Below are positions 9,005-20,140 of a DNA stretch of 20,592 nt, piece by piece. The notes under the pieces are model-generated. The model was not told where the DNA came from and made no database searches. It saw nothing but the letters and a program-made list of their open reading frames with translations. Numbering within the stretch: position 1 is the first letter of the stretch; each line of letters starts with the position of its first letter. Source of the DNA: Candidatus Hodarchaeota archaeon (lineage in GTDB: Archaea; Asgardarchaeota; Heimdallarchaeia; Hodarchaeales; Hodarchaeaceae); assembly GCA_029856365.1 (NCBI GenBank), contig JAHQWW010000068.1, positions 1 through 20,592 of the forward strand. Reading direction: 5' to 3'. A program made the position numbers and the translations under genes.

Positions 9005-9097
9005 GCGCTGATAGTCTAGTCTGGTTAGGACTCCAGCCTTCCATTCTCACTAAAGAGGAGATAGCTGGCTACCCGGGTTCAAATCCCGGTCGGCGCA
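9005..9097 (+). tRNA. tRNA-Gly(TCC) with 19-nt canonical 37/38 intron (9044-9062)
   Basis: Acceptor GCGCTGA/TCGGCGC-A, anticodon stem CCAGC/GCTGG, CT-TCC-A, T-arm CCGGG-TTCAAAT-CCCGG; BHB helix CTTC/GGAG with 3-nt bulges. Confidence 0.95.
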
Positions 9098-11443: not shown

Positions 11444-12124
11444 TCATTGATTTTGAATTACTGTTCCAACAATTTTCCCATTGATTGCTTGCTTAATCTT
11501 ATCTACGTTTTTTTCTAACACAATAATTCGGATATTGGTACGTTCACATATTTTAGCAGCAATAAGAGTAAATGGAGCATTTGACCCTGCATTCAAAGAT
11601 AATGGGGATACAATTTCATAAAACTGATTATAAGTCAATTCACTATATTTTTTCGCATCAGAATATTGTTTTGGATCTTTATCATAAATTCCATCAACAT
11701 TCGTGACGTTTACAAGGATAGGAGAACCATATAAATCCGCTAGGATAGCTGCATCTTCATCTGTTTTAATAGCTGTTAAAAATCCACCAGATATACCAAT
11801 ATCATACGTCTGAAGATGTTCGGTTAATTTTTTCACAGTAGAAGGCAATACAGGTGAACAATGTCCTTTAAAATAGTAAGTTAGTAATTGGGCATTAAGC
11901 CAAGTTGCAGCAATACCCATATAATCCCGTTCACCTTCGGTCAGTCCATTAGGCAATCCCTTAATGTATTCTCGAGCAACCTTCCCACCACCACATACAA
12001 TCATAAATTTATATTTGTGAACCAGCTCTCTTATCGCGATGGAAAAATCTTCAAGGAACTTGCTATTAATATTACCAGGATTGATGACACTTCCTCCCAA
12101 AGACAGTGTAATTAGAGGTTTCAT
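11444..12124 (-). CDS. pyrH: Uridylate kinase
   Basis: SLGGSV, VCGGGKVAREY, DYMGIAATWLNA, TDEDAA and TNVDGIYDKDPK. Confidence 0.95.
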   Translation of the reverse strand: MKPLITLSLGGSVINPGNINSKFLEDFSIAIRELVHKYKFMIVCGGGKVAREYIKGLPNGLTEGERDYMGIAATWLNAQLLTYYFKGHCSPVLPSTVKKLTEHLQTYDIGISGGFLTAIKTDEDAAILADLYGSPILVNVTNVDGIYDKDPKQYSDAKKYSELTYNQFYEIVSPLSLNAGSNAPFTLIAAKICERTNIRIIVLEKNVDKIKQAINGKIVGTVIQNQ

Positions 12125-12295
12125 CTCTTAACTCTCCAGAATTTTAAATATGCTGTCCTTTTAATATTTTTATGTGATTACTTTCTTTTAAAAAAAGTAT
12201 CCCAACCACACTCCCTCAAGTATCTAGATTATTCTCTCGCTCCTCGTCGCGGGATGAGAAACCTAATGATTTTTTTCTATTAATGTATCAAAATA

Positions 12296-12454
12296 TGCCG
12301 AGGGTGCGATTTGAACGCACGACAACTGGATATCCATCACACAGGAGAATCTGGGACTTCAGTCCAGCGCTGACGGGAACCAATACCATCATAGGATGGC
12401 TATCCTCCCGGGTTTCTCATTTGCTCATGAGAGCAAACTCTAAGCTACCTCGGC
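12296..12454 (-). tRNA. tRNA-Phe(GAA) with three introns: 15/16 (12439-12413, 27 nt), 22/23 (12404-12372, 33 nt), 37/38 (12356-12332, 25 nt)
   Basis: Removing the three segments gives GCCGAGG TA GCTT AGCCCGGGA GAGC G CTGGA CT GAA GA TCCAG TTGTC GTGCG TTCAAAT CGCAC CCTCGGC A, a complete archaeal tRNA-Phe cloverleaf; each junction has a BHB-like helix. Confidence 0.88.
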
Positions 12455-12540: not shown

Positions 12541-12729
12541 CTAATCAATTCGACGACGCCGATTGAAATTTTTTTGTACCCAAGAATATCGTCTTAATTT
12601 TGGGTTTGGATATCCACAATAGGCACATTGATGTTTACGTTTATGGTAGGATCGATTTCCACATCTTCGGCATTGCATATGAGTTCGTTTAGCGGTGTGT
12701 TTTCCGCGTGCTGCTGTTCCTTTTGTCAT
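12541..12729 (-). CDS. rpl37e: 50S ribosomal protein L37e (eL37)
   Basis: MTKGT...THMQCRRCG..SYH....CAYCGYP..KLRRYSW zinc ribbon; directly downstream of Sm, a conserved archaeal gene pair. Confidence 0.97.
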   Translation of the reverse strand: MTKGTAARGKHTAKRTHMQCRRCGNRSYHKRKHQCAYCGYPNPKLRRYSWVQKNFNRRRRID

Positions 12730-12776: not shown

Positions 12777-13016
12777 CTAGGGTGGAGAGATAAGGATCAC
12801 GTTGTCTCCTCGAAGGATGATATTTCCTAGTGTTTCAGTTACTACCTCTTGATCATTCTCTTCTTTTGGAGGGTAGATCATCTCTGCATCTTCTAGGTAT
12901 AAATTAAGATGTGGGTCGTAGCTGCGTAAGATCCCACGGATTTCACGACGCCCTCTAACTTTTAGGATTACTTTCTTGTTGAGAGCTGCTGTTAATACAT
13001 CTAAAGGTCTACTCAT
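12777..13016 (-). CDS. Sm-like archaeal protein (LSm/SmAP1)
   Basis: RPLDVL, Sm1 motif GILRSYDPHLNLYLEDAE and Sm2 motif LGNIILRGDNVILISP. Confidence 0.96.
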   Translation of the reverse strand: MSRPLDVLTAALNKKVILKVRGRREIRGILRSYDPHLNLYLEDAEMIYPPKEENDQEVVTETLGNIILRGDNVILISPP

Positions 13017-13060: not shown

Positions 13061-13200
13061 TGCTCCGACCGGGATTTTCAGTTCACAAACATCCTGTTTG
13101 TCTCTTTTGAACCCGGGTCTTTCCGCTTGGGATCAACATCGAATTCAGCCAGATTCGGGGCGAAAGCCCGGAATGATGGGCCGAGCTACACTATCGGAGC
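13061..13200 (-). tRNA. tRNA-Glu(TTC) with two non-canonical introns: about 44/45 (13153-13120, 34 nt) and 59/60 (13105-13075, 31 nt)
   Basis: Acceptor GCTCCGA/TCGGAGC-A, D-arm GTGT..TCAT, CCGGG CT TTC GC CCCGA, variable AGAC, T-arm CCGGG TTCAAA|T CCCGG; T-loop intron has a perfect TTCA/TGAA helix. Register of the first intron is ambiguous by 1-2 nt within an A-run. Confidence 0.85.
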
Positions 13201-13410
13201 AAAACCTCACGAATTACCACGTTTATTGGCAATACAACCCCCCTTGCTTCAAATTAAAAAGCTTTGTTAATAGTATGGTAAATGGCGAAACAAGAGCTTT
13301 AAAAGTACCTTAGCAATTTTTATTTGGCTATTCAATAAATTAGAAATACTTAATTTTTTAGAAAAGCTTGTTTCGCTATTGCAGGGTCTGAAGATAAGGT
13401 GTTTAATAGT

Positions 13411-13773
13411 ATGGTTTCTCTACGTCATCGAAAAAAACAAAAAAGATCTTTAGAACGCCATGAAACCCAGTTATTAGCGCGAAACGCTGTAAAATTTCTA
13501 ATCGAAGAAAGCTTAAAATTCCGCTTAACAAACCCTCAAAGATCCCAAGAACTGTTTCATGCTGCCCAAAAAATCGGAAAAAGAGGACGATTTCATCTTC
13601 CACATAAATATCGCTTCTTATTTTGCTGGTATTGTCATTATCCATTAAGTATTGAAACAACAAAAATTCGTTTAAATAGCAAAAAGCATCAAATCCATTA
13701 TCTTTGTTTGAACTGTAAGAAGGAAAAACGATATGGTTATCTATATAGTAGAAAAAAAAAGATGGAGGAATAA
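13411..13773 (+). CDS. rnp4: Ribonuclease P protein component 4 (Rpp21/Rpr2 family)
   Basis: Helical N-terminus, KYRFLFCWYCHYPL and YLCLNCKKEKRYGY Zn ribbon; ATG 13411 preferred over GTG 13399. Confidence 0.88.
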   Translation: MVSLRHRKKQKRSLERHETQLLARNAVKFLIEESLKFRLTNPQRSQELFHAAQKIGKRGRFHLPHKYRFLFCWYCHYPLSIETTKIRLNSKKHQIHYLCLNCKKEKRYGYLYSRKKKMEE

Positions 13774-13775
13774 TT

Positions 13776-14102
13776 ATGTTTGTAGCGATTTATACGACTT
13801 TTGGCAGTCTAGATGAAGCAAAGGCCTTTGGACGTCTCTTGATTGAAAAAAAACTGGCAGCTTGTGTAAATTTAATTCATGACGTTCATTCAATCTATCG
13901 TTGGAAAGGGAAAATTGAAGAGACAACAGAAATAATTCTATGGGGCAAAACTCAAGATTTTTTGATTGAAAAGATCCAAGCTATGATCCAAGAGTCTCAT
14001 CCCTACGATTTACCAGCTTTAGTAGTTTATCCAATCCACTTTGGAAATGAGGCATATTTAAAATGGATATCTGAAGAGACCCAGGCTCTACACATCAACT
14101 GA
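13776..14102 (+). CDS. cutA: Divalent-cation tolerance protein CutA
   Basis: LIEKKLAACVN, SIYRWKGKIE, HPYDLP and YLKWI. Confidence 0.95.
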   Translation: MFVAIYTTFGSLDEAKAFGRLLIEKKLAACVNLIHDVHSIYRWKGKIEETTEIILWGKTQDFLIEKIQAMIQESHPYDLPALVVYPIHFGNEAYLKWISEETQALHIN

Positions 14103-15122
14103 AACCTTAAACCGATTATTAAGCTTTTCTGTGTGAATTTCAACTCCTAGTACTTCTTGAATCAACCTAATATTTGTTTTAGTATGATTAGACAAATAAG
14201 GCGTATAAAAAGTACTGGAATTGTGTGCTGTTGCCATGATCGGTAAAATTTGATCGGTTAAAAAAGGATCAACAGTACTTTGGCTGTTTAATGAAACGAT
14301 ATAGCGTTCGGAAGCTTTTTGACCGACTTTTTCAGCAGATAACTTAGGTTCGCCAACAAAATCCCCGCTTAATACACTATCTCCTATTCTTGAGAATATT
14401 AATACACCAGAACCTGGGTTATTAGCATTTACATATTCAATACTAATTTTTGATTCAATATCATTGTTTAATAAAGCTGTTGCGATTGTATCTGCTTGTC
14501 TTTCTGCGACCCGTGCTTTTTGAAGGTGTTTTGACGCAAATGATAGAATATAAACCAATTTTGGTTTTTGGAAAAATTCAAGATTCAATCCTTGTAAGAA
14601 CGAAGGCGAATGCATAACAGCTGACACGCTTGCTCCTCCCTTTGGATAAAAACCATGACGATGGATTTTTAGTGTAAGTCCAAAATTCATTTGACGAAAA
14701 ATCTCCCAAGTGACATGATTTACATAAGGAATACTGGGAGCCCATTTTCCAAATGTAGCTCCCCCCTGAAACTCTACTTTAAGGGTGTGATTCTTAACTC
14801 CAAGGACTGCCATCTGAAGAGACTGTAAAATCAGTCCTAAACTGCCCGCTGTGGAAACAGAAATCTGCAAATGTGATCTCCAGGAATTTGTAGGAATGAA
14901 AGAGATGGTTTCTGACCCGAGAAAATCTCCTTCTAATTCACCTCCACATAATTTAGCTAGTGACCGAACACCTACAAGATGTTGTGTTCGGAGTCCTGAT
15001 TTTGGTCTATTTTTTCGGATATTTACAATTTTAACAGGTTCTTGTGTTATGAGGGCAAGAGATGTCACTAATCGAAGAATAGATCCTCCTCCTTCTCCTA
15101 AACTTCCATCATAAACTTGCAA
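14088..15122 (-). CDS. rtcA: RNA 3'-terminal phosphate cyclase
   Basis: DGSLGEGGGSILR, NIRKNRPKSGLRTQHL, TAGSLGL, GFYPKGG, VAERQA, LTDQI and SNHTKTN (catalytic His present); TTG start. Confidence 0.95.
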   Translation of the reverse strand: MQVYDGSLGEGGGSILRLVTSLALITQEPVKIVNIRKNRPKSGLRTQHLVGVRSLAKLCGGELEGDFLGSETISFIPTNSWRSHLQISVSTAGSLGLILQSLQMAVLGVKNHTLKVEFQGGATFGKWAPSIPYVNHVTWEIFRQMNFGLTLKIHRHGFYPKGGASVSAVMHSPSFLQGLNLEFFQKPKLVYILSFASKHLQKARVAERQADTIATALLNNDIESKISIEYVNANNPGSGVLIFSRIGDSVLSGDFVGEPKLSAEKVGQKASERYIVSLNSQSTVDPFLTDQILPIMATAHNSSTFYTPYLSNHTKTNIRLIQEVLGVEIHTEKLNNRFKVSVDV

Positions 15123-18615: not shown

Positions 18616-18688
18616 TGCGCCGACCGGGATTTGAACCCAGGTCACCTGTGTGGCAGACAGGAGTCTTACCAGGCTGGACTATCGGCGC
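18616..18688 (-). tRNA. tRNA-Gly(GCC), intronless
   Basis: GCGCCGA TA GTCC AGCCTGGTA AGAC T CCTGT CT GCC AC ACAGG TGAC CTGGG TTCAAAT CCCGG TCGGCGC A. Confidence 0.96.
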
Positions 18689-19981: not shown

Positions 19982-20140
19982 GCGGGGGTAGCCAAGCCAG
20001 GTCAAAGGCGGCATTTATTGGGCTAGATGATAGCTTAGCATATCATAATAGCGCCGTCCAAAGGCGCTGGACTTAAGATCGCTTTTCGATAAGCAATCCA
20101 GTCATATAGATGTACGTGGGTTCAAATCCCATCCCCCGCA
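19982..20140 (+). tRNA. tRNA-Leu(TAA) with two introns: 21/22 (20006-20061, 56 nt) and 37/38 (20078-20095, 18 nt)
   Basis: Spliced form GCGGGGG TA GCC AAGCCAGGTCAAA GGC G CTGGA CT TAA GA TCCAG TCATATAGATGTAC GTGGG TTCAAAT CCCAT CCCCCGC A; anticodon intron has a perfect BHB (CTTA/TAAG); D-loop intron helix GGTC/GTCC with AAA bulges. Confidence 0.92.

Follow-up and report, generated by a model that had tools for sequence, protein, structure and literature searches.

The window analyzed here, a stretch of 20,592 nt of one contig of a Candidatus Hodarchaeota archaeon, carries a tRNA-Phe(GAA) gene of 159 nt with three introns and no encoded CCA (12296..12454, minus strand), which was delimited by joining the exons and by spliced alignment. 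All four exons lie on the minus strand and read from 12454 to 12296, a point left unstated by the first-pass annotation. Exon 1 (12440..12454, 15 nt) supplies tRNA positions 1–15, exon 2 (12405..12412) is an 8-nt micro-exon of positions 16–22 including G18-G19, exon 3 (12357..12371, 15 nt) supplies positions 23–37 with the GAA anticodon at 12360-12358, and exon 4 (12296..12331, 36 nt) supplies positions 38–73. They are interrupted by intron 1 at site 15/16 (12413..12439, 27 nt), intron 2 at site 22/23 (12372..12404, 33 nt) and intron 3 at the canonical site 37/38 (12332..12356, 25 nt). In the motif of intron 1, G10-U13 of exon 1 form the central helix and A14-G15 its 5' bulge; the GAGA strand of the intron (12418-12415) pairs at three of four positions with GCUU, the inner hairpin consists of 8 bp (12438-12431 with 12426-12419; 7 Watson-Crick pairs and one G-U), and the exonic outer helix is absent (HBh' type). 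The central helix of intron 2 is built on the micro-exon itself, where CGGG (12410-12407) pairs at all four positions with CCCG (12377-12374), with a one-pair flank on each side and an irregular inner stem. Intron 3 has a relaxed motif with a 3/4 central helix CTGA/ATGG (C-G, U-G, G-U and A.A), whose outer helix is the full anticodon stem. These structures, namely the 8-bp hairpin with the 3/4 GCTT/GAGA helix, the CGGG/CCCG helix on the micro-exon and the relaxed third motif, had all been described in the first-pass annotation and were all recovered.

The joined 74-mer was recognized by ARAGORN as tRNA-Phe(GAA) with complete acceptor (7/7), D (4/4, one G-U), anticodon (5/5) and T (5/5) stems; the unspliced gene was missed by both ARAGORN and Rfam. 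A motif-free spliced alignment, for which the profile was trained without the tRNA-Phe gene under study, returned three inserts of identical lengths at 87 bits versus a maximum of 4.3 in 60 shuffles, so that the proposed three-intron tRNA-Phe(GAA) with exons of 15, 8, 15 and 36 nt was upheld. This alignment placed the second insert one base later, at 23/24, by a small margin, and at 22/23 when a motif bonus was given. Registers 23/24 for intron 2 and 38/39 for intron 3 were ruled out by the motif geometry and the relatives. When the introns were shuffled, 3/4 helices arose with P of about 0.17–0.23 and the 4/4 helix with P = 0.047; the 3/4 helices taken singly are weak evidence, and the proof of the introns is comparative. 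Several other architectures were rejected: a split or permuted tRNA gene, since 159 nt hold all four exons in colinear order, each in a single copy; group I or group II self-splicing introns, whose ribozyme core takes hundreds of nucleotides, since the introns are 25–33 nt and Rfam had no match at the locus; and skipping of the micro-exon via a composite intron, since the helices required, GCUU/CCCG (0/4) or CGGG/AUGG (2/4), form no motif on inspection. Each exon motif is single-copy in the 4.24-Mb assembly, and a whole-genome spliced tRNA census found no other Phe tRNA gene in this assembly, which is 83.6% complete, as the first-pass annotation had expected of a sole Phe-GAA gene; at about 84% completeness a further Phe gene is still conceivable. 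No clear TATA box was seen upstream on inspection by eye.

The neighbouring genes are in conserved synteny. Upstream lie a zinc-finger ORF of 62 aa, judged by inspection to encode ribosomal protein L37e (12541..12729, minus strand), and an Lsm/Sm protein gene (12777..13016, minus strand), and downstream lies an amino-acid-kinase-family ORF, a putative UMP kinase (11444..12124, minus strand). Genes for an RNase P subunit Rpp21-like protein, CutA and RNA 3'-phosphate cyclase (window 13399-15122) adjoin the tRNA-Lsm cluster, a neighbourhood common to the relative G012. Directly upstream of Lsm and co-oriented with tRNA-Phe is a tRNA-Glu(TTC) (window 13061-13200, minus strand) with two non-canonical introns at approximately 43/44 (34 nt) and 59/60 (31 nt), which went undetected by ARAGORN and Rfam. 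Elsewhere in the window are a tRNA-Leu(TAA) (19982-20140, plus strand) interrupted in the D-loop by an intron of about 55 nt and at 37/38 by one of 18 nt, mis-called as tRNA-Pro by ARAGORN, a tRNA-Gly(TCC) (9005-9097, plus strand) with a 19-nt canonical intron, and a tRNA-Gly(GCC) (18616-18688, minus strand) with no intron. A 10-nt segment about 32 nt downstream of the tRNA-Phe gene (12254-12263) complements the 3' junction of intron 1 (shuffling P of about 0.009); as a regulatory trailer it was rejected and ascribed to chance, since no orthologue has it, not even the 98%-identical G006, and its predicted pairing is below 1e-4.

Of 21 genus relatives, 20 gave a DNA match to the gene; counting the gene studied here, 19 full genes could be parsed, all at the Lsm-L37e-tRNA-kinase locus. 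The three-intron layout (15/16, 22/23, 37/38) is exact in 11 genus members, and six others add a fourth intron at 59/60 in the T-loop (five complete, the sixth, G012, pieced from two contig ends). Three members are without the 15/16 intron: G010 (22/23, 37/38, 59/60), G016 (22/23, 37/38) and G005 (22/23, 59/60), which brings the carriers of the 59/60 intron to the six four-intron relatives and two others. A sister-family genome has the 22/23 intron alone, and in another family of the class 16 genes have zero, one or two introns, with the D-arm free of introns. Clean junctions are present as contiguous DNA for 15/16 in G005, G010 and G016, for 22/23 in G028 and its family (f3), and for 37/38 in G005 and G022; comparison of orthologous loci, as suggested by the first-pass annotation, thus yielded every predicted junction as plain DNA in some relative and bore out the three intron sites. 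An exact compact version of positions 1–37 had no match in the metagenome collection. In G012 (L053 5188-7263 with L028) a single locus contains two versions of tRNA-Phe. The one behind L37e ends after approximately position 44 and is followed by a 293-aa methyltransferase-like ORF and a duplicated L37e 3' piece, and an inverted four-intron copy has intron sequences that differ from those of the copy behind L37e. Either an integrated or inverted segment has replaced the gene, or the bin is chimeric.

Among the intron-1 carriers (three- and four-intron orthologues), exon identity is 95–100%, and intron identity is 64–100% for intron 1, 55–94% for intron 2 and 35–96% for intron 3. The micro-exon is invariant in 15 of 15 aligned intron-1 carriers, and the intron bases that pair with the exons stand exactly 2 nt before the 3' junction throughout, GAG in 16/16 for intron 1 and CCCG in 19/19 for intron 2. 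The structure of intron 1 covaries, with 93% of cells paired and three pairs showing two-sided changes (35–51% in slid controls); among shuffles, 0/500 scored as high on most measures, and 8/500 and 31/500 on two. Because relatedness inflates these covariation tests, the presence-absence evidence carries more weight. G10, which forms an imperfect G10.A pair here, faces C or U in 7 of the 15 relatives aligned, so that their helix is complete, and the central helix of intron 3 is 4/4 in six relatives; the motifs of the genome studied are therefore best regarded as decayed canonical versions.

Two EndA paralogues are encoded in the genome, on contigs C38 and C152 of G000. The 183-aa protein (alpha) is closest to the catalytic subunits of Aeropyrum and Sulfolobus, with a triad Y121/H129/K160 aligned to Aeropyrum Y125/H133/K164 and a loop residue K39 aligned to K44; it is this insertion loop that enables the Aeropyrum enzyme to cleave D-loop and relaxed motifs (PMC3241643). 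The 210-aa paralogue is without the catalytic His, as expected for a structural subunit. This pair fits a two-subunit, crenarchaeal-type (alpha-beta)2 EndA, for which broad specificity is predicted, in keeping with several introns per gene and introns in the D-arm. RtcB (contig C46) and ArcTGT are also encoded; regarding archaeosine modification of G15 depending on an adjacent intron, we found no passage in a review searched. By an approximate count with our own script, the genome has about 42 tRNA loci, 13 of them intron-less and about 10 with at least two introns, so that about 70% of its tRNA genes are interrupted. tRNA-Asn(GTT) is a second triple-intron gene (G000 contig C41 25475-25640, minus strand; 17/17a, 37/38 and 59/60, all with 4/4 helices), and an adjoining CAT-anticodon tRNA also has an intron at 17/17a. 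tRNA-Gln(TTG) (G000 contig C142 30330-30436, minus strand) has a 34-nt D-loop intron with a 3/4 helix, best placed at 15/16, so that the genome may use this site twice. tRNA-Trp (G000 contig C65 18792-18990, plus strand) is interrupted in the D-loop and, by a 93-nt intron with box C/D-like words, in the anticodon loop; archaeal tRNA-Trp guide introns with box C/D words are known.

With a cloverleaf from the joined exons, motifs at the boundaries, junctions as plain DNA in relatives and a host that encodes EndA and a ligase, the locus can be assigned, as far as sequence can tell, to the multi-intron archaeal tRNA genes of BHB/EndA type, and we consider it almost certainly a functional single-copy tRNA-Phe(GAA) with three non-nested introns. 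The incompleteness of the assembly (83.6%) and the imperfect (3/4) pairing of two of the three central helices could instead point to a decayed pseudogene or chance tRNA-like fragments, with the working tRNA-Phe in the unassembled 16%. This is hardly credible in view of the joined exons, which are identical across nine genomes despite intron divergence of up to 48%, the acceptor-stem changes in other orthologues, which are compensatory, the covarying intron hairpin, and the DNA search in four genus genomes of 94–99% completeness (G007, G009, G011 and G014), each of which yielded one match, the interrupted form. It is also very unlikely that one or both D-arm inserts are retained, giving a mature tRNA with an enlarged D-arm, or that a different splice register is used. 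The published Asgard census does caution that a canonical motif is missing from some D-arm inserts, which might be something other than introns (10.64898/2026.10.13.758758), and the small margin for 23/24 in the motif-free alignment leans the same way; but the fixed 2-nt spacing of the invariant GAG and CCCG can be explained by EndA cutting alone, relatives with a varying first intron base (G/T/A) fix the register at 22/23, and an insert left in place would break up the D-stem and shift G18-G19 out of position. For a functional gene spliced at all three sites, we propose that the 159-nt precursor, once transcribed, would fold with its acceptor and T arms intact and present three separate bulge-helix motifs, each of which would be cut by (alpha-beta)2 EndA and ligated by RtcB, with CCA added later. 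In this scheme no intron would require the prior removal of another. Introns 1 and 2 would probably go through separate rounds of cutting and ligation, one after the other, since with both cut the 8-mer would be paired to nothing but the excised intron 2.

The first-pass annotation had gone further and deduced ordered splicing from a D-arm that cannot form before two introns are removed. This deduction did not hold: the local BHB is what archaeal EndA recognizes, rather than the mature fold or the D-arm (PMC4090602), and because recognition is local, an unformed D-arm implies no order. Obligatory order arises from nesting, in which one motif forms only once another intron is gone (PMC3728597). 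Nesting is absent here, each of the three motifs drawing on bases of its own, and an obligatory order via nesting was ruled out by constrained folding of 16 orthologues (nearest-neighbour estimates, with protein and tertiary structure outside the model). In the full precursor, the helix of intron 1 forms with P = 0.53 and that of intron 2 with P = 0.60, and the joint value of 0.31 equals their product; with the bulges enforced, the joint cost of introns 1 and 2 equals the sum of their separate costs in this gene (coupling 0.0 kcal/mol), and in 14 of 16 orthologues the two differ by no more than 0.1. A subtler dependence, in which the D-arm introns are linked through the 8-nt micro-exon and one cut requires the other intron to be gone, has some observations in its favour. 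A single base (C17) separates the 3' bulge of intron 1 from the central helix of intron 2, so that on geometric grounds two EndA tetramers could hardly bind together; in five four-intron orthologues, having intron 2 out first makes the other motifs about 1–3 kcal/mol costlier; in G020 and G003, with central helices alone, removal of intron 2 first lowers P of intron 1 from 0.4–0.55 to about 0.02; and some other multi-intron tRNAs are known to be processed in order (PMC3728597). On the other hand, steric exclusion means one at a time and implies no fixed order, intron 2 becomes no easier after removal of intron 1 (4.2 vs 4.1; median 2.9 vs 4.1), intron 1 is barely altered by intron 2 (median 0.8 vs 0.9), and relatives have intron 2 with or without intron 1, the CCCG helix being unchanged. 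An obligatory order of this kind thus appears unlikely, and it is similarly doubtful that the micro-exon, held by the four-pair helix of intron 2 alone and a single base from where intron 1 is cut, forces strict cut-ligation coupling or a fixed order. If such coupling were true, the Hodarchaeales series of otherwise near-identical tRNA-Phe genes with two, three and four introns would lend itself to testing how a BHB-reading EndA and RtcB keep exons from being lost, in an intron-rich lineage that is unnamed in the published census and belongs to the Asgard group closest to eukaryotes.

For the three independently presented motifs, what can be expected is at most a preferred order. Forming the motif costs 0.8 kcal/mol for intron 1, 4.2 for intron 2 and 5.5 for intron 3, the last being thermodynamically weak (P of about 4e-4), and in the genome studied constrained folding made no motif easier after removal of another intron. 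Ease of motif formation would predict removal of intron 1, then intron 2, then intron 3, with 37/38 last, and this is plausible because the non-nested introns of Cyanidioschyzon leave by motif stability with 37/38 last. When intron 2 is removed first in the model, the joined exon junction mispairs with intron 3, whose cost rises to 10–11 kcal/mol; this misfold, which is specific to the genome studied and is not shown by the 98%-identical G006, would argue against '37/38 last' in this genome.

Regarding the history of the introns, the 22/23 intron, which is found in all recovered genus members and in the sister family, is probably the oldest of the three in the lineage. Three long-branch members and all outgroups lack the 15/16 intron, for which a single gain inside the genus is the simplest account; introns at 37/38 and 59/60 have a patchy distribution. 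Since the tree was built from three neighbouring proteins and its deep branches are poorly resolved, the direction of gain versus loss is tentative. No Phe intron was similar to other introns in the genome (best match at most 0.47 score per base), which agrees with the absence of copying between genes reported for Asgard tRNA introns (10.64898/2026.10.13.758758).

The rarity claimed in the first-pass annotation, namely that three-intron tRNAs are best known from Thermoproteales and that 15/16 is an uncommon site, has to be withdrawn, as such genes are common in Asgard archaea. In three complete Asgard genomes, 92–95% of tRNA genes have introns and over half of them have several (Valentin-Alvarado et al. 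2024, PMC11291895), and by our own count of Supplementary Data 4 of that paper (Atabeyarchaeia/Freyarchaeia) 36 of 121 genes have three or four introns and seven introns start after gene base 15. Both Atabeyarchaeia genomes have a three-intron tRNA-Phe(GAA), one with an 8-nt internal exon (PMC11291895), which in Atabeyarchaeia-2 lies at 379764-379771 when the columns are read as begins then ends. These organisms are likewise Asgard archaea with three or four short introns per gene, but the first exon of the Atabeyarchaeia tRNA-Phe is 23 nt versus 15 nt here, where two introns lie in the D-arm, the class differs (Heimdallarchaeia, Hodarchaeales here), and the intron load is about 70% here versus 92–95%. 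An Asgard census reports up to five introns per gene with repeated recent gains, and D-arm introns that are systematically missed by standard annotators (Goswami et al. 2026, bioRxiv 10.64898/2026.10.13.758758); it uses a tRNA-Phe(GAA) with three inserts as its example and, as here, finds an EndA of two paralogues. In its main text Hodarchaeales are unnamed and several Heimdallarchaeia lineages have fewer than one insert per gene, whereas the genus studied here reaches three or four introns in tRNA-Phe. The phenomenon, the three-intron tRNA-Phe, 8-nt exons and the 15/16 site are thus known already from published Asgard tables, and no new mechanism is involved; tRNA introns of Hodarchaeales were unaddressed in the titles and abstracts from a literature search on Hodarchaeales, tRNA and intron.

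Two more distant systems are also comparable. Thermoproteales have, as here, three BHB-type introns at non-canonical sites including 22/23, relaxed HBh' motifs and an (alpha-beta)2 EndA with a specificity loop, for instance in tRNA-Pro(UGG) of Pyrobaculum islandicum (25/26, 37/38, 56/57; PMC4090602), but they belong to a different phylum. Intron copying between tRNA genes left no trace in the genome studied here. In Cyanidioschyzon merolae, tRNA-Phe(GAA) has D-stem and 37/38 introns with independent BHB motifs, and the measured order follows motif stability with 37/38 last, the order predicted here (Soma et al. 2013, PMC3728597); the forced-order archaeal cases described in the same paper are nested, unlike the introns here. 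The Cyanidioschyzon genes and enzyme are eukaryotic and nuclear, order was measured there and computed here, and the cases compared have no D-arm micro-exon.

As ARAGORN and Rfam both miss this essential gene, genomes of this kind appear to lack tRNA-Phe. In eukaryotes, tRNA introns are mostly confined to 37/38. The multi-intron, D-arm-intron habit is here extended to Hodarchaeales, which have been proposed as the closest archaeal relatives of eukaryotes (10.1101/2024.07.04.601786), and the genus, with two to four introns between near-identical exons, offers a tidy series for tests of splicing order.
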